A stretch of DNA of 64,000 nt from Novosphingobium sp. BL-A-41-H4 (GCA_051942645.1 JBPVJP010000001.1:1054812-1118811); one strand, 5' to 3'. Numbered from the stretch's first letter, positions 7,172 through 64,000 are shown. Notes: generated by a model from the letters alone, not told the origin. Translations and numbers: made by a program.

Positions 7172-7203
7172 CGGCAACGAACGGGAGAAGGAGAACAAGG
7201 TCG

Positions 7204-45905: not shown

Positions 45906-45910
45906 CACGC

Positions 45911-47424: not shown

Positions 47425-47427
47425 GGG

Positions 47428-47862
47428 TCAGGCTGCCTTCTGCTGGGGTTCGATCCCGACGAGCCTGGTCAGATCGACCAGCATGACGGTGCCGACGGCT
47501 GTATCTATCATTCCGACCGCGCTGCGCGCCCAGCCGGGGGAAAGCTTCATCTTGACGGGCTGGACCTCGCCCTCGCCCGGCAGCACATGCTCCACGGCAT
47601 CGACCGCAAGCGCATAACCCACCCCGTCGATCTCCACGACCACGGCAAAGCGCGCCGGATGGGGCCGGGTCGGCAGGTCGAGCGCCAGCGCAACGTCGAT
47701 CACCGTCAGCGTGCGGCTGCGCTGGGTAGCCAGGCCGGCGATGATCCCCGGCGCGCGCGGCACCGGCACGATCGCGCCAAGCTCGATCACCGACTGGACC
47801 TCGACCGCCGCCATGGCGATCCGCTCCCCGGCAACGCGGGCAATCAGCAGGTCATTGTTCAT
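47428..47862 (-). CDS. cheW: chemotaxis coupling protein CheW
   Basis: 144 aa CheW-like fold (LLIARVAGERIAMAAVEVQSVIE...). Its start overlaps the cheA stop. Confidence 0.88.
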   Translation of the reverse strand: MNNDLLIARVAGERIAMAAVEVQSVIELGAIVPVPRAPGIIAGLATQRSRTLTVIDVALALDLPTRPHPARFAVVVEIDGVGYALAVDAVEHVLPGEGEVQPVKMKLSPGWARSAVGMIDTAVGTVMLVDLTRLVGIEPQQKAA

Positions 47863-49943
47863 GCGTACCTCCGCGCGCCGTCATCCGCCCCGATCAGCCC
47901 GCCGGCTCGCGCCAGCACCGCCAGGTCAAGCAGTTCGAGCGACCGGCCCTCGTGCAGCACCAGTTGCCGCCCAGCCTCGCCGGTCAACGTCGCCAGATCG
48001 ATGTCGGCCGTGTCGATTGCCCCGGCGGTGGCATAGGCCAATCGCGCGCCGGCCTGCGACAGGACCAGCACGTCGACACTCTCGCCAGCCAGCTCTCCAG
48101 CCAGACCGTGCAGCGGCACGATCGCCTCTTCGAACACGATATGCGGGAAGCCTCCGCCATGGGCGATTTCGTCCAGCGGCACGTCGATCAGCCGCTCGAC
48201 CGTGGCCATCGGCACCGCCCGGGCGATCCCATCCAGCCCGGCGAACAGGATCATTGCCGCCAGGTCGCGGGCCTCTTCATTCGCCTGGGCATCGGTCTGG
48301 ACAGCAGTGCGGGCTTGACGGTCGGTATTGAGGCCGCCGAGTTGCGAAACGCCGTGCAGATCCAGCATCAGCGCCGGCTGCCCATCGTTGAGCTGTGCCA
48401 CCCCGACATAAAGCCCGGTGGCGATGACCTGCGGCGCGACCGGGCGGATCACCAGGTCGCAGTGGTCGGCAATCCCGTCGACGCACAGCGCGAAGACCGA
48501 TCCGTCGATCATCTTGAGCATGACCAGCGTCTGCCGGTCGGGATCGGTTTCACCGGCAATGCCGAACAGGTCCGCCAGGCCGAGGCAGGGATAGAGCTCG
48601 CCGCGCACCCGCACGTGGCGCATCCCGCCGATCCGGTCCACCTCTACATCCCGGCCATTGCGGACGATCTCGCGCACGAACGAGCGCGGCACGGCAAAGA
48701 CCTGCCCTCCCGCCTCGACCGTGATCGAGGGCACGATCGACAGGGTCAGTGGAACGTCGAGCATGATCCGGCACCCTTCGCCGGGCGTGCTGAGGATCCG
48801 CAGCTTCCCGCCGATCCGCTCGATGCTGGCGCGCACGACATCCATGCCCACGCCGCGCCCCGAAATCGCGGTGACTTCGGCCGCGGTCGACAGCCCCGGT
48901 TCGCAGACCAGCATCAGGCGCTGGGCCGGATCGAGCCGCGCGGCATCCTCGGCCGAAATGACGCCGCGTTCGATCGCGCGGGCCACCACCTTGTCGCCAT
49001 CGATCCCGCGCCCGTCGTCAAGGATCGCGATGCGGATCTCGTTCCCGGTCTGGCGGGCCGACAGCATCAGCCGCCCGGCGGGACGCTTGCCCGCCGCGCG
49101 GCGCTCGGCCGGTGCCTCGATGCCATGATCGATCGCATTGCGGATAATGTGCAGCAGTGGATCGCGCAGCAGTTCGATCATCTCGCGGTCCAGTTCGACC
49201 TGCCCGCTCTCGATCTCCAGTTCCACGTCCTTGCCCAGTTCGACGGCCAGGTCGCGGATCATCCGCTGATAGCTGTCGAGCAGGGTGGCAATCGGCTGCA
49301 TGCGCACCCGCGCCATCGCCGTCTGCAATTCCGACAGCAGCGAGGAAAGGCGCCCGAAATTGGCCAGCAGCGCCGGATCACCGTCGCTTTGCCGCAACTG
49401 CCGCTCCAGTTCGTTGCGGACCAGGATCATGTCGGACACGCCGCTCATCACGCGGTCGACCAGGCTGGTCGGCAGGCGGACAGAACGGAAAGGGTCGCGC
49501 GCCTTCGCAGCCTTGGCAGGGGCGGCTTCGACTGCCGGGAGTACTTCCGGTTCAGGCAAAGGTGCGGCGGCCGCCGGGCGCGCCGCGCAAGCGGCAATCA
49601 AGGCGCTGTCGTCACCCTCGCTCAGTTGCCCCCCTTCGGCGAGCGTTTCGATCATCGCGCCGATGCGGTCGATCACGGCCAGCACGGCGTCGACCAGCGG
49701 GCGGTCGATCGCGCGCTGCCCGGCGCGGGCCTCGCCCAGTGCATCCTCGGCGGCGTGGGCCAGCGCTTCCAGCCGGGGCAGGTCAAAAAATCCGCAGTTG
49801 CCCTTGACCGTGTGGACGAAGCGGAAAATCTCGTCGAGCAGGGCGCGGTCCTCTGGCTCGCGCTCCCAGGCCACGAGTCCGCGTTCGAGCGCTTGCAGCA
49901 TCTCGCGCGATTCAGCGATGAATTCGGTAATGAGGTCGTCCAT
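47859..49943 (-). CDS. cheA: chemotaxis histidine kinase CheA with two C-terminal CheW-like domains
   Basis: HPt (FRFVHTVKGNCGFF), dimerisation domain, HATPase (DDGRGID, GRGVGMDVV), P5, then a second CheW-like segment (MILFAGLDGIARAVPMATVERLIDV...). ATG 49943. Confidence 0.93.
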   Translation of the reverse strand: MDDLITEFIAESREMLQALERGLVAWEREPEDRALLDEIFRFVHTVKGNCGFFDLPRLEALAHAAEDALGEARAGQRAIDRPLVDAVLAVIDRIGAMIETLAEGGQLSEGDDSALIAACAARPAAAAPLPEPEVLPAVEAAPAKAAKARDPFRSVRLPTSLVDRVMSGVSDMILVRNELERQLRQSDGDPALLANFGRLSSLLSELQTAMARVRMQPIATLLDSYQRMIRDLAVELGKDVELEIESGQVELDREMIELLRDPLLHIIRNAIDHGIEAPAERRAAGKRPAGRLMLSARQTGNEIRIAILDDGRGIDGDKVVARAIERGVISAEDAARLDPAQRLMLVCEPGLSTAAEVTAISGRGVGMDVVRASIERIGGKLRILSTPGEGCRIMLDVPLTLSIVPSITVEAGGQVFAVPRSFVREIVRNGRDVEVDRIGGMRHVRVRGELYPCLGLADLFGIAGETDPDRQTLVMLKMIDGSVFALCVDGIADHCDLVIRPVAPQVIATGLYVGVAQLNDGQPALMLDLHGVSQLGGLNTDRQARTAVQTDAQANEEARDLAAMILFAGLDGIARAVPMATVERLIDVPLDEIAHGGGFPHIVFEEAIVPLHGLAGELAGESVDVLVLSQAGARLAYATAGAIDTADIDLATLTGEAGRQLVLHEGRSLELLDLAVLARAGGLIGADDGARRYA

Positions 49944-50094
49944 CGGCGGCAGTCTCCACCGCTGGCTATGGACGAATATCGTTAATCGGGGGTTATGGAC
50001 CGGGTGGCAATGCCATGGTTTCGCCAGGCTGCCTTGACCAGCTGTTAACCATTGCCCGTTAGCCAAAACGCCAGACCAAGTCTGGGGCAATTGC

Positions 50095-51498
50095 ATGTAT
50101 CTAGAGAAGATTCCCGCCGGAGTGCCGCTGCTCGACCAGTCGGCCGCAACGCACTGCGGCGACCTGGCGGTGGGCTGCACCGAGGCGGCCGGCCAGATCG
50201 AACGCGCGACCGAGGCGATGCAGCGCCAGATCGGTGACCTGGCCGAACTGGACGAGATCGCCGGCGCGCTCGAACTGGACCAGCGCCAGATCGCCGAATC
50301 CGCCGACGAGGCCCGGCTGCTCTCCGCCCAGGCCTATGACCGGCTCGACAAGGGGACCGAGCGGGTCCACGACGCGGTGGTCGAATTCCGCGCGATTATC
50401 GGCCTGATTTCGCGCCTTGGCCTGCACGTGACCAATTTCGCCACGGTGATGGAACAGGTCCAGCAGGTGTCCAAGGGGATCGAACAGATCGCCCGCACCA
50501 CCAACATGCTGGCGCTCAATGCCACGATCGAGGCCGCCCGCGCGGGCGAGGCCGGCAAGACCTTTGCCGTGGTTGCCTCGGAAGTGAAGAAACTGGCCCA
50601 GAATTCCAGCGCCGCGGCCGAGGAAATCCGCCAGGCGGTGGGCAAGCTGGCCGGAGAGGCGGCCGGCCTCGTGACCGAGATCCAGTCCGGCGTGGAACAG
50701 TCGAGCCAGGCCGAAGAGCGGCTGGAAACCGTTACCGACGTGCTGGCGGAAACCACGCGGCTGGTCTCGCAGCTCGATGAAACCGGGGCCAAGGTGGCCC
50801 AGGCCAGCGCCGAGGTCCACGCCAAGGGCCTGGCCGTGCGCGGCGCGCTCGATACCGTGATCGGCTCGGTGCGGCAGAACGCCGTGCTGCTCGATGCCAC
50901 GCGCGGCAACGTGCTCGACATGGAATCGACCTCGAACAAGCTGTTCAACGCCGTGATCAGCGCCGGGGTATCCCCGCGCGATACCGAGATCGTCGAGCTG
51001 GCCGCCCAGGCCCGCAACGAACTCGTCACGCTGGTCGAGGACGCGGTCGAACGCGGCGAGCTGCGGCTCGACCAGATGTTCGACACCAATTACCGACTGG
51101 TTCCCGGCACCAACCCGGAGCTCTACCGCACCCAGTTCAGCGACTGGGCCGATGCCAACTGGCGGCCGCTGTTCGATCGCCTGCGCACCAGCCATCCCAA
51201 CGTGATCATGTGCAGCGCGGCCGACATGAACGGCTTCCTGCCCACCCACGTGACGGAGCATTCGCGCAAGCCGATTGGCGACCTGGCCCACGACACGAAG
51301 TACTGCCGCAACGGCCGGATCATGCTGGGGGGAGCCGACCACCTGGCCAAGGCCAGCGATGCACCGTTCTTCATGTCGGTCTATCGCCAGGAAGGTGACG
51401 GCACCAATTACCTTGTGGTCCGCAACGTCTATACCCCGGTGATCGTCCAGGGTCGGCGTTGGGGCGACTTCGAAGTGGCTTACCAGATCCGGGGCTAA
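50095..51498 (+). CDS. soluble MCP-like protein: N-terminal MA signalling domain, C-terminal ~180-aa sensor-like domain
   Basis: No TM segment. [37 protein letters not shown] at residues ~130-170. The C-terminal region ([28 protein letters not shown]...[11 protein letters not shown]) could not be assigned to a family by eye. Confidence 0.85.
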
Positions 51499-51508
51499 AG
51501 GCCCCGGA
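51488..51508. other. 8-bp hairpin between convergent genes, with the MCP stop codon in its loop
   Basis: TCCGGGGC-TAAAG-GCCCCGGA. No clear U-tract on either strand. Confidence 0.35.
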
Positions 51509-51518
51509 TCCCCCTGCC

Positions 51519-52625
51519 CTAGCCCGCGATCGGGCCGTGCTTGATCTGCGGCAGCACGTAACGCGCGAACATGTCGCATTCGTTGACGTGCGGGTAGCCG
51601 GACAGGATGAAGGCTTCCATGCCCGCTTCCTGATAGGCGCGCAGCTTGGCGATCACCTGGTCGGGCGTGCCGACGATAGCCGCGCCGCAGCCTGAGCGGG
51701 CGCGGCCGATGCCGGTCCACAGGTTCTCTTCCACGAAGCCGTCGCCATCGGCGGCGCTGCGCAGTTCCTGCTGGCGCTGGACGCCATAGTTCTGCGCGTC
51801 GAGGCTCTTTTCTCGGATCGCGCGGCCCATTTCGTCATCCAGCTTGGACAGCAGCCGGTCGGCATAGAGCCGGGCTTCGTCCTCGGTCTCGCGCACGATC
51901 ACGTGGGCGCGGTAGCCGAACTTGAGCGTGCGGCCCTTGGCGGCGGCGCGGGCCTTCATGTCGGCCACGACTTCGCGCACGTTCTCCATCTTGTCCGGCC
52001 ACATCAGGTAGACGTCAGCCGCTTCGGCGGCGCATTCGCGCGCTTCGTGGCTGAGGCCGCCGAAGTAGAGGTTCGGGCACTTGCCCGACAGGGTGGTGAT
52101 CCGCGCCGGATCGAGCTTGAGGTTATAGAACTCACCCTGGAAATCGAGATGCTCGCCATTGAGCAGCGTGCGGATGATCTTCATCACTTCGGTGCCCCGG
52201 CGGTAACGCGGGCCGCTTTCCAGCGTCTCGCCCGGCATGGGTGAGGAGATGATGTTGACGTTGAGGCGGCCACCCGTCCCGGCGGCATTGGGGCCCAGGA
52301 TCCGGTCCAGCGTGGCGATGCGGCGGGCCAGCTGCGGCGGCCAGTCCTCGCCCATGCGGGTGGCCCAGAGCAGCTTGATCCGCCGGACCTGGGTGGCCAC
52401 GGCCGCGGCGAAGGCGGTGGTATCGAGGCCCAGCTCATAGCCCGAAGGCAGCAGGATATTGTCAAACCCGCCCTCTTCGGCGCGCAGCACGATATTGCGG
52501 CAATGCTCCCAGCTGGACTTCAGGTAGGGATCGGGAACGCCCAGGAACTCGTAATCGTCATCGCACAGGGCGGAAAACCAGGCGATCTCGCAGTCCATGC
52601 CGGGCTTCAGTTCTTGGGCGGTCAT
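51519..52625 (-). CDS. LLM-class flavin-dependent monooxygenase, SsuD (alkanesulfonate monooxygenase) family; candidate sulfoquinovose monooxygenase
   Basis: SsuD-like throughout: IAWFSAL..DDYEFLG, NLYFGGLSHEA, DVYLMW, FGYRAHVIVRETEDEA, ENLWTGIGRARSG, IVGTPDQV, FILSGYPH. ATG 52625; the upstream part of the ORF is spurious. Confidence 0.8.
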   Translation of the reverse strand: MTAQELKPGMDCEIAWFSALCDDDYEFLGVPDPYLKSSWEHCRNIVLRAEEGGFDNILLPSGYELGLDTTAFAAAVATQVRRIKLLWATRMGEDWPPQLARRIATLDRILGPNAAGTGGRLNVNIISSPMPGETLESGPRYRRGTEVMKIIRTLLNGEHLDFQGEFYNLKLDPARITTLSGKCPNLYFGGLSHEARECAAEAADVYLMWPDKMENVREVVADMKARAAAKGRTLKFGYRAHVIVRETEDEARLYADRLLSKLDDEMGRAIREKSLDAQNYGVQRQQELRSAADGDGFVEENLWTGIGRARSGCGAAIVGTPDQVIAKLRAYQEAGMEAFILSGYPHVNECDMFARYVLPQIKHGPIAG

Positions 52626-52647
52626 TGCAGCATCCTCTGTCTTCGTC

Positions 52648-52764
52648 GTCCCGGACCTGATCCGGGACCGGTGGCCGGTTGTTCTGGCCATGCTTGTCCA
52701 GGCCAGCGATCCCGGCCTGCGCCGGGATGACGGGGGAGGCACTAGGCCGACAGCGCCCCTCCCG
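52648..52764 (-). repeat. Array of four GC-rich REP-like hairpins between the AKR and LLM genes
   Basis: GTCCCGGA-CCTGA-TCCGGGAC (52648-52668). CTGGCC...GGCCAG (52684-52706). ATCCCGGC-CTGC-GCCGGGAT (52709-52728). CGGGGGAGGC...GCCCCTCCCG (52731-52764; 1 mismatch, 1 GU). From memory, the GTCATCCCGGCGCAGGCCGGGAT type is a common dispersed proteobacterial palindrome. Confidence 0.55.
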
Positions 52765-52776
52765 CCTTGATTCAGA

Positions 52777-53691
52777 TCAGGGCAGCGGCACGCCCCGCGC
52801 CGCGACGAGCACAGCGTACCAGTCGGTCCGGGTCCAGCGGACCTGCAGCGCGGCCATGCCCTCGGCAATCCGCTCCGCCTGCTGCGAGCCGATGATCGGC
52901 ACGATCCCGGCCGGGTGGGCCATCAGCCACGAATAGGCCGCGACCGAGCGCGAGACGCCCTGCTCGCCCGCCACCTTGTCCAGCGCGGCGCAGATCGCGT
53001 GATCGCGCGCGCTTTCTGGCTTGGCGAGACGCCCGCCGCCCAGCGGCGACCAGGCCAGCGGGGTCAGTCCCAGCATCATCGCCTGGTCAAGCTCGCCGTT
53101 CTCGAAACAGTCGATCCGCAGCGGGCTGATCTCGGGCTGGGTGGAGACCAGCTTGTGGCCGAGGAACTGGTTGAGCGCGGCGGTCTGGTGGATTGTAAAG
53201 TTGGAGACGCCGAGCGTGCGGATCTTGCCTGCGGTCACGGCATCGTCGAGCACCCGGGCCACTTCCTGCGGGTGGGCCAGGATGTCCGGGCGGTGGACCT
53301 GCCACAGCTCCACCGTATCCGTCTTGAGCCGGGTCAGCGAGGCGTCGATCGCCTTGCGCAGATAGTCGGCGCTCTGGTCATAGGGCAGCGGCGGCATGAT
53401 CCCGCCCTTGGTGGCCAGCACCATCCGCCCGCGCAGGCCAGGCTCGGCGGCGAGCACTTCGCCCAGCAGCGCCTCGGCATCGCCGAAGCCGCCGGAACCG
53501 TTAAAGCCATAGATGTCCGCCGTGTCGAGGAAGTTGATCCCGGCATCGAGCGCGGCGTGGACCAGCCGCGCGGCATCGGCGGCAGTCCGGCCATTTTCGG
53601 CCAGGCGCCACATGCCCCAGGCGATCGGGGAGACCTGAATGCCGCTGGCGCCAAGCTGGCGAGTGGCAGGGGGAGAAGGCAGCTGGCTCAT
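52777..53691 (-). CDS. aldo/keto reductase; candidate 6-oxo-glucose reductase
   Basis: AKR pattern: GINFLDTADIYG, LATKGG, and a C-terminal IPIIGS (NADPH-binding region). ATG overlaps the LacI-gene stop (ATGA). Confidence 0.85.
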   Translation of the reverse strand: MSQLPSPPATRQLGASGIQVSPIAWGMWRLAENGRTAADAARLVHAALDAGINFLDTADIYGFNGSGGFGDAEALLGEVLAAEPGLRGRMVLATKGGIMPPLPYDQSADYLRKAIDASLTRLKTDTVELWQVHRPDILAHPQEVARVLDDAVTAGKIRTLGVSNFTIHQTAALNQFLGHKLVSTQPEISPLRIDCFENGELDQAMMLGLTPLAWSPLGGGRLAKPESARDHAICAALDKVAGEQGVSRSVAAYSWLMAHPAGIVPIIGSQQAERIAEGMAALQVRWTRTDWYAVLVAARGVPLP

Positions 53692-54701
53692 GATGGTTTC
53701 CTGTATGGCGGCGCGACCGAGGCGCGTTCGATGAGTTGGTGGGGCAATCGGCGGTGCGTGATGTCACCCCCGGCGATGAGGATTTCGGCAGCCGTACGGG
53801 CAAGCTCGGCCATCGGCTGGTGAATGGTGGTCAGCGGCGGCCAGACGGTGCGGGCCAGCGTGGTATCGTCGAACCCGGCAACCGAGAGCTGCGCCGGGAC
53901 CGGAATGCCGCGATCATGCGCCACAGCCAGCACCCCGGCGGCCATGTCGTCGTTCGAGGCAAAGATCGCGGTGGGCGGCTCGGGCAAGTCGAGCAGGCGG
54001 TCCGCACCGCGCACGCCGGAATCGAAATCGAACTCGCCCTCGCAGACCAGCACGGGTTCATAGGCAATCCCCACCCGGTCGAGCGCGCGGCGATAGCCGG
54101 CCAGCCGGTCTTCCGAGCCCTTGTGATTGGGATGCCCCTTGATGAAGCCGATCCGGCGGTGTCCGGCGTTGATCAGGTGCGTGGTCAGGTCATCCGCGGC
54201 CTGGGCATCGTCCATGAAGACCGAACTGGTCAGGGCATGGTTGGTGCCGGGCGAGATGCGGACGAAGGGGATGTCCATCGATTCGAGCGCGCGCAGCACC
54301 GGCTCGCAATCGGTCACCGGGCTCGACAGGATGATCCCGTCGACGTGGGTTTCGGTAACAAGGCCGCGGACCTGTTCGCCCACCATCGGATCGGCCACGT
54401 CGACCGGCTGGGCCAGCAGGCGGATGCCGTTTTCGCGGCAGAAATCCCAGCACCCGGTCTGAATCTGGAACATGTAGTAGGGGCTGTGATTGTCGTAGAT
54501 CAGGGCGACCTGGTTGCTCTTTGCGCCCGACAGAATGCGCGCGGCGACCGAGGGACGGAAGTCGAGCGCCTTCATCGCCTCTTCCACCCGTGCCTTGGTA
54601 TCGGCCGAGACATAAGGATGGCCGTTCAGCACGCGGCTGACGGTCTTCACCGCCACCCCGGCCCGTGCGGCCACATCCCGGATGTTCGACCGTTCACTCA
54701 C
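53688..54701 (-). CDS. LacI family transcriptional regulator
   Basis: N-terminal HTH: NIRDVAARAGVAVKTVSRVLNGHPYVSADTKARVEEAM. Periplasmic-binding-protein-like core. GTG start overlaps the GH31 stop (GTGA). Confidence 0.92.
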   Translation of the reverse strand: MSERSNIRDVAARAGVAVKTVSRVLNGHPYVSADTKARVEEAMKALDFRPSVAARILSGAKSNQVALIYDNHSPYYMFQIQTGCWDFCRENGIRLLAQPVDVADPMVGEQVRGLVTETHVDGIILSSPVTDCEPVLRALESMDIPFVRISPGTNHALTSSVFMDDAQAADDLTTHLINAGHRRIGFIKGHPNHKGSEDRLAGYRRALDRVGIAYEPVLVCEGEFDFDSGVRGADRLLDLPEPPTAIFASNDDMAAGVLAVAHDRGIPVPAQLSVAGFDDTTLARTVWPPLTTIHQPMAELARTAAEILIAGGDITHRRLPHQLIERASVAPPYRKPS

Positions 54702-56695
54702 AGCGACTTCAGCCCCGCGAACAGATCGGCAAAGGCGCTGTCCGGGCGGTAGAATACCGGCGGCGTACCGATTGGCGCTGCGACGGTATGAGTACCCGGA
54801 GCGGATGTCTCACCCGTGAAGGCATGGAGCCACTCGCCCTCGCCCGGCAGGATCACCTCGCGCGTCGTGGCCCCTTCCTCGATCACCGGGGCCACCAGCA
54901 GGTCCGCGCCATAGAGGTACTGGTCCTGCACCGCGAAAAGCGCGGAGTCGTCGGGATGGTGCAGGAACAGCGGGCGCTGCGCGGGCAGGCCGAATTCCAG
55001 CGCCTCGTCGCACAGGTGGCGGACATAGGGCGCCAGGTGCTTGTGCACCCGGCTCCACCGGGCGAAACAGGCCAGCAGTTCGGGCGTGCTGTCATACTGC
55101 AGGTTATCGTCCGGGCGATTGCCCTCGTGGCTGCGCATGACCGGCGCGAAGGCGGCCAGTTCGCACCAGCGCTCCATCAGCTCCACGGTGCGCACATTGC
55201 CGAGGATCGAGGTATAGCCGCCGCAATCGGCATGGCTGTAGGCATTGCCGACGAGGCCTGCCGAAAGCGCCGCGGTGATCACCGTGCCGATCCCGTCATG
55301 GCGGGTGAAATCGACCGACTGGTCCCCTGCCCACAGCAAGGGGCAATGGGCCTGCACGCCCGAGAACCCGGCGCGCATGAAGAACACGGCATCGCCGGTC
55401 TTGCCCCGGCTCTCGACCGCCTGGGCATTGACCTCGGCCCACAGCACCGGCCAGCGGTTGTGCGCTTCCATCGGGTCCGAGCCGTCGGCCAGCTGCACAT
55501 CGGTCGGCAGGTACTCACCGAAGTCGGCCATCCAGCCGGAAATGCCGATATCCAGCATCTCGCGCCCTAGCACCTTTTCGGCAAACCAGTCGCGCGTCTT
55601 GACCTGGGTGAAGTCCAGCACCCCGCAGTCGAACTCGCCGAAATCGACCAGGTAAACCTCGTCGCTGTCCTGCTTGCGGCAGAAGTGCCCGCTTTCCAGC
55701 GCTTCCTCGTAGAGGATACCGTCGTTGCAGAGATAGGGGTTGGCATAGGCCAGGAAGCGGATGCCGCGCGCCTCCAGCGCCGCGATCCGCTGTGGCAGGT
55801 CGGGAAAGCGCTGGTTGTCGCGCCGCCAGTCCCAGAACAGGCGGCGGCCGAAGCTGGTTTCGCGAATGCCCGCCCAGTCCTCGCACCAAAGGCCCGAGAT
55901 GGCGGCCCCGGCCTTGATGAAGTCGTCCAGCCGCTCAAAACTGCGCGCGCCGTCCTTCAGGCCGACGATTGCCCCGCCGATCGCCCAATCGGGCAGGGGC
56001 GGCTGGCGGCCGAAGCGGGTGGACAGCTGCCCGACCAGGTCCAGCGGACCATCGGCGGTGAACAGTTCGAACGCAGCCTCGCCCTTCCACACCTCGAAGG
56101 CATGGACCGAAGGGTAGCTGCAATCGATCACGCTGTAACAGGCCGCGTCGAGATGGATCGCCAGCCAGCGCGAAGTGATGAGTGTCGGTTGTGGGTAGTT
56201 GGTGTGATAGTAGTCACCCCCTGCCATGCCATCGCGGTCCATCGCTTGTGTCAGTGCAGTGGTCTTGTCGCGGCCTACGCCGGGCTCGCTGGTCCACATG
56301 GGGAAGCGGCGGCCATTGAGGGCCAGATAGCTCATCTGTTCGCCCCCGCCCCAGGCCGCTTCGCCCGGTTCGGCATGCCAGTGCAGGGTGATCCGGTCAT
56401 GGCCGGGGCGCAGCAGGACGACGGACAACCGATTGTCCTCCAGCGCGAGTCGCGCGACCGGCGCACCATCTGCGGAGAGCGTCGCGCAGTCGGCCGAAAC
56501 GGCGCATTCGAGCGGAACCAGCGCATTTTCAGGCGCGTCATCAATGTGGAAGTTGCCGCGGTACATCTTTACCGAAGCATTGCCCCGCGCGCTGGTCAGA
56601 ACCGGCGCGTCACTGCGATGGCGCAGCATCAGGCGCCCCGCGAAATGCAGGTCAAACCCACCATCTACCGCCGAAAATCCGGCCTCCACGCGCAT
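54698..56695 (-). CDS. GH31 glycoside hydrolase, YihQ-like; candidate sulfoquinovosidase
   Basis: SFGRRLFWDW (R-x-x-W), GWMADFGEYLPTD (nucleophile Asp), FFMRAG...LLWAGDQSVDF (acid/base region), HADCGGYTS, C-terminal APIGTPPVFYR. ATG 56695 has GGAAGG 8 nt upstream; the alternative is GTG 56758. Confidence 0.8.
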   Translation of the reverse strand: MRVEAGFSAVDGGFDLHFAGRLMLRHRSDAPVLTSARGNASVKMYRGNFHIDDAPENALVPLECAVSADCATLSADGAPVARLALEDNRLSVVLLRPGHDRITLHWHAEPGEAAWGGGEQMSYLALNGRRFPMWTSEPGVGRDKTTALTQAMDRDGMAGGDYYHTNYPQPTLITSRWLAIHLDAACYSVIDCSYPSVHAFEVWKGEAAFELFTADGPLDLVGQLSTRFGRQPPLPDWAIGGAIVGLKDGARSFERLDDFIKAGAAISGLWCEDWAGIRETSFGRRLFWDWRRDNQRFPDLPQRIAALEARGIRFLAYANPYLCNDGILYEEALESGHFCRKQDSDEVYLVDFGEFDCGVLDFTQVKTRDWFAEKVLGREMLDIGISGWMADFGEYLPTDVQLADGSDPMEAHNRWPVLWAEVNAQAVESRGKTGDAVFFMRAGFSGVQAHCPLLWAGDQSVDFTRHDGIGTVITAALSAGLVGNAYSHADCGGYTSILGNVRTVELMERWCELAAFAPVMRSHEGNRPDDNLQYDSTPELLACFARWSRVHKHLAPYVRHLCDEALEFGLPAQRPLFLHHPDDSALFAVQDQYLYGADLLVAPVIEEGATTREVILPGEGEWLHAFTGETSAPGTHTVAAPIGTPPVFYRPDSAFADLFAGLKSL

Positions 56696-56877
56696 TTCCC
56701 CAACCTTCCCGAGCGGCTGTTGCGCCAAAGCCACAAGCGCCGCAAACCCGTATGACACCGCTTGACATATCGAGCGCTTCCCCGCAATTCAAGCACCAAG
56801 CGGAAGGGTGCACCCCGTCCGCCAGAGGAGAATTCGCCGCGGGGCAGGAGGCCCCCGGTACAAGGGAGGACACATCC

Positions 56878-59265
56878 ATGAAGTCGATGCTCCGCGCCTC
56901 GTCGGCCCTGCCCCTGGCAGCGCTGGCCATGGTTGCTTTTGCCGCTCCGGCCTATGCCCAGGACGCGGCTGATGATGAGAATAACCCCGGCGAAATCGTC
57001 GTAACCGCCCAGAAGCGCGCTGAAAACGTCCAGGACGTGCCGGTTGCCGTGTCTGTCCTGTCGGGCGAACGCTTGGCCGATGCCTCGCGTCCGAGCATTG
57101 AAAGCGCCAGCCAGATGGTGCCTTCGCTCAACTTCCTGAAGTCGGGCACCACGCTGAACCAGACGATCTTCCTGCGCGGCGTCGGCACCGCGACCTTCTC
57201 GATCGCGGGCGAACCCTCGGTCTCGACCGTGGTCGACGGCGTGGTCTACTCGCGCTCGGGCGAAGCCTTCTCCGACATGGTCGACGTGGCCCAGATCGAA
57301 GTGCTGCGCGGCCCCCAGGGCACGCTGTTCGGCAAGAACGCCTCGGCCGGCGTGATCAACATCACCACCCAGATGCCGAAGATGGAATTCGGCGGCTCGG
57401 TTGAAGCCAGCTATTTCGATCGGAACGAGTATCGCCTGAAGGGCGCGGTCAACCTGCCGCTGGGCCAGGACCTGGCCGCCCGTTTCACCGCCTTCTACGG
57501 CGAGTATGACGGCAACATTCGTAACGTCACCACCAACGAATGGGTCAACGGCTACAAGCACTGGGGCGTGCGCGGCCAGTTCCTCTACGAACCGAGCGAC
57601 GACCTGCGGCTCTATCTGGCCGCCGACTATTACAAGAACGATGACGATTGCTGCGCCGACATCATCGGCACCGGGCCGCTGACCGGCACCGGCCTGCCGA
57701 GCACGAGCCTGGGCTTCCTTGCCCTGCCCAGCCCGGATGGTGCCAACACCCGCGCCGTCGCCCAGAACCTCGTCACCGCGACCAAGGAAGAAGGCTGGGG
57801 CGTCTCGTTCCAGGGCGATTTCGGCCTTGGCGATCACACCATCACCAGCATCACCGCCTATCGCGGCTGGGACAACACCGAAATCCGCGATGGCGACTGG
57901 CTTGACCGGGCCTACGTCGGCTTCGCCCAGCTCCACGATACCGGGCCGCAGACCTCGACCACGTTCACCCAGGAACTGCGCCTGACCTCGCCCGCCGATC
58001 AGACGCTGTCCTATGTGCTGGGCGCGTTCTACTCGCGCGCGGAATCGGAGCGGACCTTCACCCGCAATGTGACCCAGTGCACCGCCGCAGCCGGTGCGCC
58101 GACCACAGTGCTGGTGCCCTGCGGCAGCGCCTTTGCAAACCCGGCGACCACGCCCTCGGGCTCGGCGACCTTTGGTTCGACCTTCAACAACTTCGCCTTG
58201 TTCGGCCAGGCCACCTACAAGTTCTCGGATTCGATCCGGTTCGTGGCCGGGCTGCGCTACACGCATGACAAGCTGTCGGTATTCCACCGCCGCGTTTCGC
58301 CGCTCACCGGTCCGGGCATCCAGCCGAACTTCGACCAGGGCGTGTACAACGAGTACATCCGCCTGATCGGCCTCGGCACCGCGCCGGGCACCGCCGCGAC
58401 GGCAGCAGCCGCCTTGTCGAACGGGGTTCCGTGGACCAGCGAGACCAGCAACGACAACGTGTCGGGCAAGGCAACGCTGCAGTTCGACCTGAACGACGAC
58501 AGCATGGCCTATGCCAGCTATGCTCGCGGCTACAAGGGCCCGGCCTACAACGTCTTCTTCAACCTCACCGGCACGGGCACCAACGTGATCGAGCCGGAAA
58601 CCTCGGACTCGTTCGAGATCGGTCTGAAGAACACGCTGCTTGACGGCCGCCTGACGTTCAACATCGCGGCCTACTATGCCAAGTACAAGAACTTCCAGGC
58701 CAACAATCCGGACCTGGTGGCCGGCGTGGTAGTCACCCGCTTCACCAATGCCGGCACGATCTCGACCAAGGGCATCGAAATCGACATGAACTGGCGCATT
58801 GGCTCGACCACGAACCTCAGTGCCGGTGTTTCGATCAATGATGCCAAGGTCGTGAACTTCAACGCCCCGCTCGGCACCACGGCGGTGATCCCCGCTGGCA
58901 CCAAGCTTGGCTATGCACCGACCTGGAAGGGTTCCATGGCGCTCGATCACACGATCGAGACGGGCGGCTTTGCCAACATTGCCTTCGGAGCCTCGATGAA
59001 CTTCCAGTCGAAGCAGCTCTCGCTGTTCGCGGCTGACCCGGTGCAGCGCCAGTTCGGCACGATCCCGGCCTATGCCCTTGTCAACGCTCAGGTCGGCATC
59101 GTCGATCCGGACGACAAGTGGAAGCTCACCTTCGTGGTCCGCAACCTGTTCGACAAGGCCTATGCCGCGGCGATCGTAAATGGCGGCGTGGGTGGCTCCT
59201 ATCGCTACCAGATTCCGCGCGATGCGGATCGTTACTGGGGCGTGACCGGCCGGTTCAGCTTCTGA
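56878..59265 (+). CDS. TonB-dependent receptor
   Basis: Signal peptide ...AFAAPAYAQD. TonB box/plug (EIVVTAQKRAENVQDVPVAVSVL). 22-strand barrel region. C-terminal aromatic residue (GRFSF). GGGAGGA SD before ATG 56878. Confidence 0.93.
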   Translation: MKSMLRASSALPLAALAMVAFAAPAYAQDAADDENNPGEIVVTAQKRAENVQDVPVAVSVLSGERLADASRPSIESASQMVPSLNFLKSGTTLNQTIFLRGVGTATFSIAGEPSVSTVVDGVVYSRSGEAFSDMVDVAQIEVLRGPQGTLFGKNASAGVINITTQMPKMEFGGSVEASYFDRNEYRLKGAVNLPLGQDLAARFTAFYGEYDGNIRNVTTNEWVNGYKHWGVRGQFLYEPSDDLRLYLAADYYKNDDDCCADIIGTGPLTGTGLPSTSLGFLALPSPDGANTRAVAQNLVTATKEEGWGVSFQGDFGLGDHTITSITAYRGWDNTEIRDGDWLDRAYVGFAQLHDTGPQTSTTFTQELRLTSPADQTLSYVLGAFYSRAESERTFTRNVTQCTAAAGAPTTVLVPCGSAFANPATTPSGSATFGSTFNNFALFGQATYKFSDSIRFVAGLRYTHDKLSVFHRRVSPLTGPGIQPNFDQGVYNEYIRLIGLGTAPGTAATAAAALSNGVPWTSETSNDNVSGKATLQFDLNDDSMAYASYARGYKGPAYNVFFNLTGTGTNVIEPETSDSFEIGLKNTLLDGRLTFNIAAYYAKYKNFQANNPDLVAGVVVTRFTNAGTISTKGIEIDMNWRIGSTTNLSAGVSINDAKVVNFNAPLGTTAVIPAGTKLGYAPTWKGSMALDHTIETGGFANIAFGASMNFQSKQLSLFAADPVQRQFGTIPAYALVNAQVGIVDPDDKWKLTFVVRNLFDKAYAAAIVNGGVGGSYRYQIPRDADRYWGVTGRFSF

Positions 59266-59292
59266 TCCGGATGGTTTCGACCTGACCAGATT

Positions 59293-59328
59293 GGGGCCTT
59301 CGTCTGCGGACGGAGGCCCCATTTGTTT
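59293..59328 (+). terminator. Rho-independent terminator after the TonB-dependent receptor gene
   Basis: GGGGCCTTCGTC-TGCG-GACGGAGGCCCC (12-bp stem including one GU), followed by ATTTGTTTC. Confidence 0.75.
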
Positions 59329-59345
59329 CAAGCCGCGATGGGGAG

Positions 59346-60587
59346 ATGGCGCGGGTGCAGAAAATCAACAGCCGGCTCAGCTGGACCTTGTTCCTCCTGC
59401 TCTGCGTGGCGGGCGTGTTCAACGCGATGGATCGCCCGATCATCGCGATCCTGAAGCCCGACATGTCGGCCGATTTCGGTTGGACCGATGCCGATTTCGG
59501 CCAGCTGGCTTTCATCACCCAGATGGCTGCGGCCATCTCATTCCTGTTCACCGGTTGGCTGGTCGACAAGCTTGGGGTCTGGCGGTCGATGATCGCGGGG
59601 GTTTCGACCTGGAGCCTCGCCGCCATTGCCCATGGCTGGGCGGTAAGCGCGTGGCACGTGGTGGCCGCTCGCATTGGCCTGGGCGCGACCGAGGCCGTTC
59701 AGACCCCGCTGACGATCAAGACTGTCGCAACCCTGTTCCCGGCCAATCAGCGCAGTTTTGCCTTTGGCGTGGGGACGGCAATCGCCGGGCTGGGCACGTT
59801 GTCGTTGCCGTTCTTCATCCCGATCATCGCTGCCGCCTTTGGCTGGCGCGGCGCTCTGATCTTTGGCGGGGTGGCCGGATTCATCACCCTTGCGTTGTGG
59901 CTGTGGTTTGCCCGGCGCGTTACCTTTGACGATGGCGCCGAAGACGACAACCAGGACTATTCCGACGATGGCGCGCCTTATGGCCCGATCCTGGCCGACC
60001 GACGGACCTGGGCCATTGTTATCGCCAAGGCACTGTCCGATGCCACCTGGTGGCTGATCAATTTCTGGCTGCCCGATTTTTACCGCAAGACCTATGGCCT
60101 CACTACCGAGGAACTGGCCGTACCGCTGGCGATCGCCTTCCTCGGTTCAGGCAGCGGGGCGCTGCTCGCTGGCTGGATCTCCACCCACCTGCTGGAAAAG
60201 GGCTGGAGCCCCAATCGCGTGCGCAAGTCCGTGATGCTCTGTTCGGCTTTGGTCGTGCTGCCCCTGCCGCTGGTACTGCAACTCAACTCGTTCTGGCCCG
60301 TGGCGGTCATGATGGGCGTGGTCATGGCCGGCCACCAGGGCTTCTCGCTTTCGATCTTCTCAACCATTACCGACGTGGTGCCGCGCACCAAGGTTGGCCG
60401 CGTCACCGCTTTCGGTGCCTTCATGGGCAACATGGGCGGGGCATTGATCCAGCTGGTGACCGGTGCGGTGCTGACCGCCGGCCTTGGCTTTACTCCGCTG
60501 TTCATCTTTGCCGCCGTGTCATATCTGCTGGCGCTGGGCTGGCTGCACCTGTTGCTGCCGCTGATCCGCCGCCCCAACGAAGTCTGA
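59346..60587 (+). CDS. MFS transporter, ACS/hexuronate-type (anionic sugar importer family)
   Basis: 12-TM pattern. N-terminal NAMDRPIIAILKPDM motif, typical of ExuT/ACS-like MFS. Alternative GTG start at 59355. Confidence 0.82.
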   Translation: MARVQKINSRLSWTLFLLLCVAGVFNAMDRPIIAILKPDMSADFGWTDADFGQLAFITQMAAAISFLFTGWLVDKLGVWRSMIAGVSTWSLAAIAHGWAVSAWHVVAARIGLGATEAVQTPLTIKTVATLFPANQRSFAFGVGTAIAGLGTLSLPFFIPIIAAAFGWRGALIFGGVAGFITLALWLWFARRVTFDDGAEDDNQDYSDDGAPYGPILADRRTWAIVIAKALSDATWWLINFWLPDFYRKTYGLTTEELAVPLAIAFLGSGSGALLAGWISTHLLEKGWSPNRVRKSVMLCSALVVLPLPLVLQLNSFWPVAVMMGVVMAGHQGFSLSIFSTITDVVPRTKVGRVTAFGAFMGNMGGALIQLVTGAVLTAGLGFTPLFIFAAVSYLLALGWLHLLLPLIRRPNEV

Positions 60588-60600
60588 TCCCGCCACTCCG

Positions 60601-61704
60601 ATGAACCAGAGCGAACCCCGCAAGCCTGTCTCGACAATCGACTGGGACGCCCTGCCCCACGGCGGAGACCTGTTCGGCGAGATGCACCTGGCCGAACAGG
60701 CTGCCCAGGCCGACCGGCCGAAGGACAGCCTGTTCCCCGGGCTGGCCATTTGCGGCGTAGCCGCAGCGGCAGCGGCATGGTTGTCGGAGCATTACGGCTT
60801 TCCGATCATCCTGTTGGGCCTGCTTATCGGGCTGTCCTTGAACTTCATTGCCCGCGATGCCCGGACCCATCCGGGTCTGGACTTTGCCTCGCGCACCTGT
60901 CTGCGGGTGGGGATCGTGATCCTGGGGTTGCAGGTAACGGTCGGGCAGATCACCGCCCTCGGCGCCGCGCCGTTCCTCGCGCTGCTGGTGGTAATGGCCA
61001 CCACGTTCTTCGCCGGAATAGCCGGGGCGCGGCTGGTGACGCAGTCACGCTATGCCGGGATGCTGGCCGGTGGCTCGACCGCGATCTGCGGAGCGAGCGC
61101 TGCGCTGGCACTTTATGGCGTGATCGGCAAGGAACGGCTAAGCCAGGCACAATTCGCACTGACCCTCGTCGGTGTTAGCCTCGCCAGCGCCTTCGCCATG
61201 TCGGTCTATCCCGCGCTGGCCTCCGAACTGCACCTGACCGATCGCCAGGCCGGCTTCCTGATCGGGGCTTCTATCCACGATGTCGCCCAGGCGATCGGCG
61301 GCGGCTATGCCTTCTCCGACGCAGCCGGATCCTATGCCACGATCGTCAAGCTGGCCCGCGTTGCGCTGCTGGCACCGGTAGTGGTGCTGGTCAGCCTGAT
61401 GCTGCGCGACCGGACCGGCGCCTCTGCGGCCCAGCCGCTGTGGAAGCGCTTGTCGCTGCCCTGGTTCATCACCGCCTTCCTCGCGACCGTGGTGCTCAAC
61501 AGCCTGATCACCGTGCCTGAGCCAGTCAGCCACTATGCCCTGGTCGGATCCAAGGGCCTGCTGCTGCTGGCAGTCACCGCCACCGCCATGCGCAGCCGGA
61601 TGGATCTGCTCCTCGACATGGGTTGGCGCGCTACCATCCCGGTCGTGACAGCCACCCTCGCCAGCTTCCTCACCGCTCTGGGCTTTGCGGTGCTGCTGCT
61701 CTGA
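60601..61704 (+). CDS. YeiH/UPF0324 family membrane protein (PSE family, putative sulfate exporter)
   Basis: Polytopic, with a YeiH-like pattern (FPGLAICGVAAAAAAWLSE, ICGASAALA, IHDVAQAIGGGY, KLARVALLAPVV). The N-terminal ~27 aa may be an over-extension. Confidence 0.7.
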   Translation: MNQSEPRKPVSTIDWDALPHGGDLFGEMHLAEQAAQADRPKDSLFPGLAICGVAAAAAAWLSEHYGFPIILLGLLIGLSLNFIARDARTHPGLDFASRTCLRVGIVILGLQVTVGQITALGAAPFLALLVVMATTFFAGIAGARLVTQSRYAGMLAGGSTAICGASAALALYGVIGKERLSQAQFALTLVGVSLASAFAMSVYPALASELHLTDRQAGFLIGASIHDVAQAIGGGYAFSDAAGSYATIVKLARVALLAPVVVLVSLMLRDRTGASAAQPLWKRLSLPWFITAFLATVVLNSLITVPEPVSHYALVGSKGLLLLAVTATAMRSRMDLLLDMGWRATIPVVTATLASFLTALGFAVLLL

Positions 61705-61800
61705 CTTGCCCCGGCCCCGCGATACGGCCTCTCTGCCCCATTGTCGCCTTGGCCCGGCCCGCTTATGGGCCGCGCCAGAGGTTAGTGGAGACATGCCAAA

Positions 61801-63947
61801 ATGACGTTTCGTACCCTTGCCGTTGCCGCATCGTCGCTGGCGATCGGTCTTGCCCTTTCAACGCCTGCCGCCGCCGACGAGGGCATGTGGCTGCCCAGCC
61901 AGATGGCTGAAGTGGCCGCGCAGATGAAGGCTGCCGGTGCCCAGGTTCCGCCGGAACAGCTTGCCGACCTGACCAAGGCGCCAATGAACGCGATCGTCTC
62001 GCTGGGCGGCTGCTCGGCCTCGTTCGTCTCGCCTGAAGGACTGGTGGTTTCGAACCACCACTGCGTCTATGGCTCGATCCAGTACAATTCGAAGCCGGGT
62101 CAGGATTACCTGACCGATGGCTTCCTGGCCAAGACCAAGGCCGATGAAGTCCCCGCCGCCCCCGGCACCCGCATCTTCGTGATCGAGGCCCTGCGCAACG
62201 TCACCACCGACATGCTGAAGGGCGTGACCCCGAAGATGACCGGCCGCCAGCGGTTTGACCGGATGGATGCCAATCGCAAGGGCCTGATCGCGGCCTGCGA
62301 AAAGCAGCCTAACCGCCGCTGCGACGTGCGCAGCTATTTCGGCGGCGAGCGCTATTTCCTGCAGCAGCAGCTCGAGATCAAGGACGTCCGCCTGGTCTAT
62401 GCTCCCGCTGGCGGGATCGGCAATTTCGGTGGTGAGACCGACAACTGGCAGTGGCCGCGCCATACCGGTGATTTCGGGTTCTACCGCGCCTATGTCGGCC
62501 CCGATGGCAGCTCGGCCAGCTATTCCAAGGACAACGTGCCCTATAAGCCCAAGTCCTGGCTGACGATCGCCAAGGAAGGCCTCAAGGACGGCGATTTCGT
62601 GATGCTGGCGGGCTTCCCCGGCAACACCAACCGCTGGCGCATGGCGGCGGAAACCCGCTCGGTCTTTGCCGATCGCTATCCGCTCAACCAGAAGATGCTG
62701 TCCGACTATTCGGACCTGGTGAACAAGCTGACCGCAGGCAATCAGGCTACCCAGATCAAGTACGCCAACAGCGTAAAGGGAGCGGACAACACCAAGAAGA
62801 ACCTGCTCGGCCAGATGTCGGGCGCCGACGCAATCCGCCTGATCGAGACCAAGGAAGCCGAAGAAGCCGCATTCCGCGCCTGGCTGGCTGCCGATCCCAA
62901 GCGGCAGGCCACTTATGGCCCGGCCCTCGCCCAGCTCGACGCGCTGATCGCCGATGGCAACAAGCGCGCCGTCAACGACATCAAGATGGGCCAGCTGGGC
63001 CGCGCCCAGCTGCTCTCGGCGGCCAGCACGCTCTATCGCTGGGCCAAGGAACGCGCCAAGCCCGACGCCCAGCGCGAAGCGGGCTTCCAGGACCGCGATC
63101 GCACCCCGCGCATGGAAGGGCTGAAGCAGATCGAGCGGCCGTTATGACGCCGACGGTCGATCGCAAGATCATGGAATGGGCGCTGGGCCATTACCGTTCG
63201 GTCCCGGCGGGCGAGCGCAACGATGCGCTGCTGGCCAAGCTGGACGAGATCGGCCTCGACAAGCTGTTCGCCGAAACCAGGCTGGGCGACACCGCCACGC
63301 GCCTGGCCTGGATGGACAAGACCCCGGCGGAGTTCGAAGCCTCGACCGATCCCTTCATCCAGCTGGCTGTCGCGGCCTATCCCTACAGCCAGAAGCGGCT
63401 GGAGGAGGACAAGGAGAACGACGGCAAGCAGAACGCCGCCTCGCGCGCGGTGATGGAAGCGCGGATGGCCTGGACCCGCGAACAGGGGAAGTCGGTCTAC
63501 CCCGATGCCAACAGCTCGCTGCGGATCACCTGGGGCCATGTGACCGGCCGCAAGCAGGATGGCGTGGCCTGGAGCGCCTTCACCACTGCCGAAGGCATGA
63601 TCGCCAAGCACACCGGCAAGGGTGAATTCGACGCGCCGGACAAGGCGGTCGAACTGGTGAAGGCCAAGGACTATGGCAACTATGTCGCCCCGGAACTGGG
63701 CACCCTGCCGGTCAACTACCTGTCCACGGTGGACATCACGGGTGGCAACTCCGGTTCGGCCACGCTCAATGCCAAGGGTGAACTGGTGGGCCTCGCCTTT
63801 GACGGCACGCTGGATGGGGTGATTTCCGACTGGCGCTTCAACCCGGCGATCAACCGCACCATCCATGTCGACCACCGCTACATGCTGTGGGTCATGGAGA
63901 AGGTCGATGGCGCGACCAACCTGCTGAAGGAAATGGGCGTCAAGTAA
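61801..63947 (+). pseudogene. S46 family dipeptidyl-peptidase (DPP7/DPP11-like) split by a frameshift near 63130-63147
   Basis: ORF A (61801-63147) has a signal peptide, ADEGMWLPSQ, SNHHC (His) and HTGDFGFYRAY (Asp). ORF B (63144-63947, frame A+2) has TGGNSGSATLN (Ser). Together they total ~715 aa, the normal S46 length. Confidence 0.7.
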
Positions 63948-63960
63948 GCCCCACTTGCCG

Positions 63961-63996
63961 GACCGGAGCTTGCGGAACCATCCGCAGGCTCCGGTC
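63961..63996 (+). terminator. Long hairpin after the S46 gene (window ends before any U-tract)
   Basis: GACCGGAGCTTGCGGA-ACCA-TCCGCAGGCTCCGGTC: 16-bp stem with 1 mismatch. Confidence 0.5.
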
Positions 63997-64000
63997 TGCA

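Follow-up and report, generated by a model that had tools for sequence, protein, structure and literature searches.

How could a Novosphingobium carry glycosides of the plant sulfosugar sulfoquinovose (SQ) across two membranes, and how could it dispose of the sulfite released from them? The question is raised by three genes at positions 56878 to 61704 of a 64,000-nt stretch of Novosphingobium sp. BL-A-41-H4 DNA (GCA_051942645.1, JBPVJP010000001.1:1054812-1118811; the whole stretch is called the window here, and positions are counted from its first letter). According to a 2026 review, SQ acquisition by aquatic, especially freshwater, bacteria "remains largely unknown" (PMC13436972), and stable-isotope probing has identified Novosphingobium as a dominant SQ assimilator at a mangrove site (PMC13372026). 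An earlier note had proposed that the three genes provide receptor capture, anionic-sugar import and sulfur-anion export for an adjoining SQ-like operon. Co-conservation and a shared operator-like motif lend support to this overall reading, and it is quite likely that the three genes serve as the transport arm of an SQ monooxygenase (sulfo-SMO/ASMO) cluster built like a carbohydrate utilization locus with a TonB-dependent receptor (CUT locus). The genes, and the hairpin that separates the first two, are the following.

56878 to 59265, plus strand: TonB-dependent receptor (TBDR), 795 aa, the proposed outer membrane transporter for SQ-glycerol or SQ
59292 to 59331, plus strand: intrinsic-terminator-like hairpin (stem at 59292-59321) with a T tract, the end of which is 14 nt short of the MFS start codon
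59346 to 60587, plus strand: major facilitator superfamily (MFS) carrier, similar to the anion:cation symporter (ACS)/SLC17 group, 413 aa, the proposed H+-coupled inner membrane importer of SQ-glycerol or SQ
60601 to 61704, plus strand: membrane protein of the YeiH/PF03601 (putative sulfate exporter) family, 367 aa, the proposed sulfite exporter

All three genes are divergent from the minus-strand gene (54698-56695) of a family 31 glycoside hydrolase (GH31), and the YeiH gene starts exactly 13 nt past the MFS stop codon, as the earlier note had described. The GH31 gene opens the neighboring operon.

54698 to 56695, minus strand: GH31 sulfoquinovosidase of the YihQ/SmoI type, with no signal peptide (NF007746, 860 bits against a cut-off of 553)
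53688 to 54701, minus strand: LacI-family regulator within the operon, overlapping both neighbors (GH31 and the aldo-keto reductase) by 4 nt; the presumed binder of the 17-nt motif described below
52777 to 53691, minus strand: aldo-keto reductase (AKR), homologous to the 6-oxo-glucose reductase SmoB/SquF (best PDB matches 7BBZ/7BC1/7BBY/7BC0, about 180 bits)
51519 to 52625, minus strand: luciferase-like monooxygenase (LLM)-class SQ monooxygenase homolog (SmoC/SquD), for the sulfite-releasing step (best PDB matches 7OH2/7OLF)

The best structural matches of GH31, LLM and AKR are SmoI, SmoC and SmoB of Agrobacterium tumefaciens or R. oryzae. The GH31 protein passes the YihQ equivalog model and matches the A. 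tumefaciens sulfoquinovosidase best (5OHY/5OHS/7OFX, 815 to 817 bits), while the LLM protein scores 358 to 366 bits against the SmoC structures 7OH2/7OLF versus 181 to 195 bits against SsuD. The source paper lists 7OFX as SmoI and confirms the codes 7OH2/7OLF and 7BBY/7BBZ/7BC0/7BC1 (PMC8795539). A sulfoquinovosidase, an SsuD-like monooxygenase and a 6-oxo-glucose reductase are thus clustered here, a trio that is kept in 47 to 48 of the 49 loci introduced below, and judged by these matches the operon is a true sulfo-SMO set. Neither the flavin reductase (SmoA/SsuE) nor the ATP-binding cassette (ABC) importer SmoEFGH was found within 50095-63947; by gene content, the ABC importer of the A. tumefaciens type is replaced here by TBDR and MFS. 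Since the GH31 protein lacks a signal peptide and its alignment with the solved A. tumefaciens enzyme begins at residue 7, it is presumably cytoplasmic, and SQ glycosides would therefore have to pass both membranes intact. In addition, glpK and glpD stand within or beside many SQ clusters of relatives, which together with the missing signal peptide points to SQ-glycerol as the imported compound. The two glp genes lie within or adjoin the SQ clusters of several genomes, and in one genome the SQ cluster is directly followed by zwf-edd-glk-eda of the Entner-Doudoroff pathway (the loci concerned are L090 11267-16086, L081 16154-17650 and L175 1-2542). Such neighbors are consistent with glucose and glycerol as the breakdown products of SQ-glycerol.

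The association of the transport genes with these enzymes is conserved. A scan with the GH31 protein, limited to one genome per species, gave 80 loci, mostly from Sphingomonadales with a few from Caulobacter, Niveispirillum and others, and the window proteins were mapped onto them. Flanks were full (6 kb or more upstream and 5.5 kb or more downstream) in 49 of the loci, and in these LLM was present in 47, AKR in 48, LacI in 46, TBDR in 48, MFS in 39 and YeiH in 32, and all five non-regulatory genes occurred together in 32. The co-occurrence across Sphingomonadales that the earlier note had put forward as a check is strong, near complete for TBDR and lower for the other two genes. In 62 of 69 loci, no more than 600 nt separate the receptor gene from GH31, and the GH31-adjacent receptors are 39 to 90% identical to that of the window versus 25 to 31% for other TBDRs of the same loci. 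YeiH was never found without MFS in the GH31 loci. Gene order is shuffled and the set kept in several Sphingomonas and Caulobacter loci (L058, L069, L072, L074, L078). Recurrence of this set in dozens of independent genomes puts the arrangement far beyond chance.

The reverse look-up gave the same picture. TBDR homologs (P0229 and P0240, in the contexts L081 to L083) were all in SQ clusters, and close homologs were found nowhere else; the YeiH homologs P0102 and P0092 (L090 to L093) were likewise all in SQ clusters. MFS homologs at 79 to 91% identity adjoin YeiH, mostly within SQ clusters: P0246 and P0338 are in such clusters (two MFS contexts, L088 and L089, have the gene order of the window), and P0291 is in a motif-bearing module of MFS divergent from YeiH-GlpD. 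On two metagenome contigs (L086 and L087), LLM-AKR-LacI stands beside Gfo/Idh/MocA-TBDR-MFS-YeiH with no GH31; the L086 Gfo/Idh/MocA protein (6274-7362) matches structures of the NAD+-dependent sulfoquinovosidase family GH188 (381 bits, 8QC3), so that on this evidence the transport set survives the replacement of GH31 by a GH188-type sulfoquinovosidase homolog.

The second line of evidence is a motif that came out of an alignment of the GH31/TBDR intergenic regions of 11 loci, in which one 17-mer is invariant, a second block is conserved and the rest of the spacer is unconserved.

56752 to 56768, plus strand: 17-nt operator-like motif ATGACACCGCTTGACAT in the GH31/TBDR divergent promoter region, with a perfect TTGACA at 56762-56767
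56784 to 56794: second conserved block GCAATTCAAGC (GCTTGAATTGC on the minus strand), about 15 nt from the 17-mer

The second block probably serves the GH31 operon promoter as its -35 element (TTGAAT). A strict palindrome search of the GH31/TBDR spacers gave nothing useful, and the motif emerged solely through the alignment. It occurs once in the window, where about 0.1 would be expected by chance. We scanned 1.44 Mb from the 80 genome loci with the generic pattern ATGACACCGNNNGACAN, allowing up to one mismatch, and obtained 106 matches, of which 66 were upstream of GH31, 30 of YeiH, 7 of MFS and 3 elsewhere. The motif precedes GH31 in 66 of the 80 loci and YeiH in 30 of the 39 loci that have this gene; where it precedes MFS, YeiH is missing or past the contig end. 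Among metagenome loci, it was found before YeiH in all 33 divergent MFS-YeiH pairs, in none of the 11 codirectional pairs with a short gap (the type found in the window) and at 2 of 19 YeiH genes with no adjacent MFS. It is also retained at the 5' end of YeiH in a module of MFS divergent from YeiH-GlpD that stands far from the SQ enzymes (L084 and L085).

On the YeiH side, the motif follows a conserved promoter-like CTTGCA-N17-ATAAGG. An explanation of this copy as conserved N-terminal coding sequence was rejected, since the frame from its ATG meets stops in many loci. Loci whose LacI is just 52 to 54% identical have an altered core, ATGACA(A/G)CG(T/C)T(A/G)GACAG, and those with still other arrangements have no match. 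The core thus covaries with the LacI ortholog, as would be expected if the LacI protein binds it. The central CG and the partial symmetry of the motif also resemble the operators of the LacI family, and we infer that the LacI-family protein of the operon binds the 17-nt motif.

The receptor is the most secure of the three assignments, and a role in SQ uptake is highly likely for it. Its ATG (56878) stands behind a GGGAGG ribosome-binding site, and its stop codon is at 59263-59265. The protein contains the plug (PF07715, 58.8 bits; gathering cut-off 23.9) and the 22-strand barrel (PF00593, 156.5 bits; gathering cut-off 27) of TBDRs. Reading the translation by eye, we found a signal peptide in the N terminus (MKSMLRASSALPLAALAMVAFAAPAYA followed by QD, the peptide ending in AYA directly before QD), the TonB-box-like GEIVVTA at residues 38 to 44 and a C-terminal F (in RFSF). 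An Rfam scan of 51000-64000 gave no match at E values up to 0.1, and there is thus no known riboswitch or small RNA in the 110-nt leader of the TBDR gene.

Import of SQ compounds by the MFS carrier is also quite likely. The protein has 163.9 bits to MFS_1, and its only solved relative is Escherichia coli DgoT (82 bits), in which D46 and E133 serve in proton coupling and R47 in carboxylate binding (PMC6532931). The Asp-Arg pair in TM1 and the Glu in TM4 are present as D29, R30 and E116, which align with these residues, and the alternative MFS of relatives, 42% identical to that of the window, also retains them. The best NCBIfam match is the D-galactonate/ACS subfamily TIGR00893, at 120.7 bits under a cut-off of 395; the carrier is hence not to be filed as a galactonate or hexuronate carrier, and a grouping with these carriers, which the earlier note had named as a reason to give up its reading, was not seen.

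This result bears on the view that the adjacency is meaningless, with the receptor being of the siderophore type, the carrier one for hexuronate or galactonate, the third gene coding for a generic membrane protein, and all of them beside the SQ operon by chance. Automated names of close homologs, such as "iron complex outermembrane receptor protein" and "ACS family hexuronate transporter", speak for it; however, the set is kept in Sphingomonadales, Caulobacter and other lineages despite rearrangement, the motif is shared, and no hexuronate, galactonate or iron genes occurred in any of the homolog contexts examined. We regard chance adjacency as exceedingly unlikely.

For YeiH, sulfite export is the probable role, with somewhat less confidence than for the other two. 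The protein belongs to PF03601 (174.6 bits, gathering cut-off 24.5, with 300 of 304 profile positions covered), of which it is a divergent branch. No solved structural relative was found, and an AlphaFold2 model from 33 close homologs was poor (mean pLDDT 58.9, pTM 0.44). In Salmonella, yeiH is needed for resistance to sulfite stress (PMC12880088), and the Bordetella pertussis homolog BP2808 has been described as a sulfite exporter required for sulfur homeostasis (bioRxiv 10.64898/2026.04.22.720190). Sulfite is thus better supported as the substrate than sulfate, the other anion offered by the earlier note. A scan of metagenomes with YeiH added 80 loci, and among the 39 with at least 6 kb upstream, SQ enzyme genes were present in 28.

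The 11 others are the starting point of a rival view, in which TBDR and MFS import SQ and YeiH is a general housekeeping exporter of sulfite or other anions, or has another substrate, with no role specific to SQ. These 11 copies form a similarity group of their own in contexts unrelated to SQ, and 9 of them lack the motif. It appears from this quarter of the close relatives that YeiH has been recruited rather than being dedicated to SQ. The nine without the motif (L112, L115, L121, L123, L124, L127, L131, L157 and L168) are 64 to 78% identical to the window protein; in L131 the neighbors are cupin, halogenase and esterase genes, and in L157 flavin monooxygenase, acyl-CoA ligase and DsbA genes. 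It also speaks for a housekeeping role that 17 of the 49 SQ clusters have no nearby YeiH, that the roles assigned to PF03601 rest on mutant phenotypes and not on transport assays, and that the window YeiH has no operator of its own. However, YeiH carries the motif in most of the genome loci that have it and in all divergent metagenome pairs with MFS, is found in GH31 loci only where MFS is, and in the window is fused 13 nt behind that gene; furthermore, the pathway would make one sulfite per SQ in the cytoplasm, and the Salmonella and Bordetella mutant phenotypes indicate sulfite. A housekeeping YeiH is therefore unlikely, and export of the sulfite made from SQ is the reading that we keep. Two TBDR-containing clusters with no monooxygenase, that of Niveispirillum (L065) and one of Zymomonas (L177), also have no YeiH. 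These two cases fit YeiH tracking sulfite production, and TBDR and MFS tracking SQ glycosides.

The Zymomonas cluster (Z. mobilis ZM4 plasmid pZZM402, 128-11361) contains genes for a class II aldolase, an aldose epimerase, a FucI-family isomerase and a protein like succinate semialdehyde dehydrogenase, together with two ACS-like MFS genes, a TBDR 35% identical to that of the window and a GH188-like oxidoreductase (58% identical to that of L086). It looks like a sulfoglycolytic (sulfo-EMP2-like) SQ cluster, with no kinase in the stretch shown. Another plasmid cluster, of Azotobacter salinestris (L176, 6561-15581), is flanked by insertion sequences and has the gene order LacI | TBDR-LLM-AKR-aliphatic-sulfonate binding protein-TonB-ExbB-ExbD. 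Its TBDR is 37% identical to that of the window; as its LLM is just 23% identical, we dropped it as independent support, and some other organosulfonate may be what this TonB-dependent system handles.

A number of findings weigh against the proposed SQ transport arm as a whole. Besides the 17 clusters with no YeiH, 10 of the 49 have no detectable MFS. The TIGR00893 score of the carrier is far under its cut-off, and YeiH scores 112.3 bits to TIGR00698 ("YeiH family putative sulfate export transporter"), under the cut-off of 232.6, and is only 26% identical to E. coli YeiH (E value 8e-30). The likeness of the TBDR to solved siderophore receptors is generic, and its specificity thus cannot be read from the sequence. 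The motif is an imperfect palindrome, symmetric at 5 of 8 positions. With a strong terminator 14 nt before MFS and no second operator, co-expression of MFS and YeiH with the operon is assumed, and a search of public sequencing runs with 54698-61704 returned only metagenomes, with at most 8% of words, and no RNA run. Finally, SQ (about 244 Da) and SQ-glycerol (about 318 Da) could also pass through porins.

The last point belongs to another rival view, in which the roles are reassigned: the MFS carrier would export sulfite or a by-product, with YeiH or an unlinked carrier as the importer, or the TBDR would serve for lyso-sulfolipid, with SQ and SQ-glycerol entering via porins. Transport direction and substrate are not readable from sequence, the L036 and L050 clusters have a TBDR and no nearby MFS or YeiH, so import can use other carriers, and one of the two related MFS proteins of the Zymomonas cluster may export sulfolactate. 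The loci with no YeiH or MFS were checked for substitutes, and only an ABC system near the TBDR (L050) and a third type of MFS (L010) were found. Set against this, the characterized ACS members are proton-coupled importers of sugar acids and their coupling and anion-binding residues are conserved here, the YeiH phenotypes match the export of a toxic anion, and two MFS lineages with 42% identity occupy the same slot, as expected of a conserved import function. We consider such a reassignment very unlikely, and retain import by TBDR and MFS and export by YeiH as the directions inferred for the set.

If the three genes work together, how would the last two be transcribed? The window MFS and YeiH genes have no promoter or operator of their own: a promoter consensus scan gave no sigma-70-like site for MFS (such a scan is weak for alphaproteobacteria), and the gap between the hairpin and the MFS start leaves no room for one. 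Transcription would hence have to read through the hairpin that follows the TBDR gene. This is the terminator that the earlier note had placed at 59293-59328; its stem has 13 bp, 9 of them G-C pairs, starts 27 nt past the TBDR stop codon and is followed by TTTGTTTC. A hairpin with a T tract is found after the TBDR gene in all 15 codirectional TBDR-MFS loci examined, with differing stem sequences, which makes it a maintained feature. Partial read-through would give abundant receptor and less carrier and exporter.

The single operator of the window seems to have a history. The closest relatives by GH31, TBDR and YeiH (L001 and L005, 83 to 95% identity) have the other, 42% identical MFS between TBDR and YeiH, in the opposite orientation, and their YeiH has its own promoter and operator. 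DNA homology to them ends at 59268 and resumes at 60637, leaving the following segment.

59269 to 60636, plus strand: segment with no DNA homology to the closest relatives, comprising the terminator, the MFS gene, the 13-nt spacer and the first 12 YeiH codons

These breaks indicate that a cassette was exchanged, and the exchange would have removed the promoter and operator of YeiH and left the window with one operator. The incoming MFS of the window belongs to a type known from clusters in Erythrobacter and Porphyrobacter (about 70% identity) and is 89 to 91% identical to those of L029 and L088. Downstream of YeiH, an S46 (Dpp7-like) dipeptidyl-peptidase gene (61801-63947) is split into two overlapping open reading frames of 448 and 267 aa. 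The split comes from a net difference of +2 nt around 63140-63155 when compared with L005 and L088, where the gene is intact and encodes 710 aa; this reflects either a pseudogene with a frameshift or a mistake in the sequencing.

Taken together, SQ-glycerol, and probably also free SQ, would be carried over the outer membrane by the TBDR, and the ACS-like MFS, as a proton symporter, would move the anionic sugar into the cytoplasm. There, the GH31 sulfoquinovosidase would free SQ, the LLM monooxygenase would break the C-S bond to give 6-oxo-glucose and sulfite, the AKR would make glucose, and YeiH would expel the toxic sulfite. The single 17-nt site at 56752-56768 would presumably be bound by the LacI-family repressor of the operon, and read-through of the hairpin to MFS and YeiH would set a ratio of much receptor to little carrier.

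Several known systems have parts of this design. CUT loci such as sux of Xanthomonas campestris (SuxA TBDR, SuxC MFS, SuxB glycoside hydrolase and SuxR LacI) and that of Caulobacter MalA share a TBDR, an MFS, a cytoplasmic glycoside hydrolase and a LacI repressor with an operator in the divergent promoter region. In the window, TBDR, MFS, GH31 and LacI are likewise clustered within 53688-60587, an arrangement conserved in relatives; it differs in its predicted substrate, a glycoside of an anionic sulfosugar, in having an MFS of the anion:cation symporter type, and in the addition of a putative exporter for the sulfite by-product.

Other SQ systems differ in their transporters. The smo cluster of A. 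tumefaciens has orthologous SmoI, SmoC and SmoB and imports SQ-glycerol, and the organism releases sulfite to the medium during growth by sulfo-SMO (PMC8795539); however, it uses the ABC importer SmoEFGH with the binding protein SmoF, has no TBDR or ACS-type MFS, and has the flavin reductase SmoA. The sulfo-ASMO pathway of Novosphingobium aromaticivorans DSM 12444, from the same genus-level lineage, has SquD, SquF and YihQ (Liu et al. 2021, as reviewed in PMC9594981 and PMC12890257) and likewise no SsuE-type flavin reductase (PMC9594981); only enzymes are characterized there, and the reviews do not mention transporters. The earlier note had regarded TBDR uptake of sulfoquinovosyl compounds as uncharacterized and listed ABC or YihO/YihP transporters for SQ. 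That list is incomplete, as tripartite ATP-independent periplasmic (TRAP) systems are also known, and the idea of TBDR uptake had appeared in 2025 for Alteromonas, backed by proteomics (PMC12780224), which takes away part of the novelty. In A. macleodii ATCC 27126, growth on SQ raised the abundance of the TBDR MASE_18030 107-fold, and a part in SQ uptake was suggested for this receptor (PMC12780224). Its sulfo-SDO cluster is also a Gram-negative SQ-desulfonating cluster with a TBDR, sulfite-handling genes and a "sulfate transporter" (PMC12780224), but in a gammaproteobacterium that cleaves the C-S bond with a dioxygenase (a flavin monooxygenase here) and has the sulfoquinovosidase SqgH and a sulfite dehydrogenase. 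The two receptors are likened by description, and the family of that "sulfate transporter" is not stated.

As for the single transporters, the Salmonella YeiE-YeiH system has a protein of the same PF03601 family tied to sulfite toxicity (PMC12880088), and the PF03601 members SuyZ and TauZ are tied to sulfite-releasing desulfonation pathways (Rein et al. 2005, cited in PMC12890257). Unlike YeiE-YeiH, the window has no adjacent LysR regulator of the YeiE type, and the YeiH of relatives would be controlled via the SQ cluster operator. The equivalents of D46, R47 and E133 place the MFS with E. coli DgoT (PDB 6E9N; PMC6532931) and the ACS sugar-acid:H+ symporters (bioRxiv 10.64898/2026.05.20.726482), but DgoT is distant, the context is SQ and not galactonate or hexuronate, and the anion would be a sulfonate rather than a carboxylate. 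Our literature search found no paper pairing "sulfoquinovose" with "YeiH", and TonB-dependent uptake is absent from two 2026 reviews of SQ catabolism. Both the type of system and the probable role of each family were known or proposed already, and the combination of TBDR, ACS-type MFS and YeiH in sphingomonads, its operator and its regulon logic are new.

Beyond the transport genes, the 151-nt spacer between AKR and LLM (52626-52776), of highly variable length among relatives, contains a perfect hairpin, CCCGGC-GCAG-GCCGGG, at 52708-52729, a single copy in the window. On its other side, the SQ operon abuts a chemotaxis cluster (45063-51498) with cheR, cheB, a cheY-like gene, cheW and cheA on the minus strand and a methyl-accepting chemotaxis protein (MCP) gene (50095-51498) on the plus strand. 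The MCP gene ends 20 nt from the LLM stop codon, and this adjacency is common only to the closest relative, L001.

For the physiology of these bacteria, the locus gives candidates for the crossing of the outer membrane, the crossing of the inner membrane and the disposal of sulfite, plus a candidate operator and a candidate repressor. For the YeiH family, which is poorly understood, it would offer a physiological setting with stoichiometric sulfite production, and the TBDR subfamily together with the 17-mer could serve as a marker for SQ-uptake potential in metagenomes. More tentatively, and we consider this doubtful at present, the receptor may belong to a dedicated TBDR family for sulfoquinovosyl glycosides, possibly including lyso-sulfolipid, that extends across at least three catabolic pathways, with MFS and YeiH as an obligatory pair, SQ in and sulfite out, under one LacI-type regulon. 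If so, Sphingomonadales would scavenge the head groups of sulfolipids in fresh water with high affinity.

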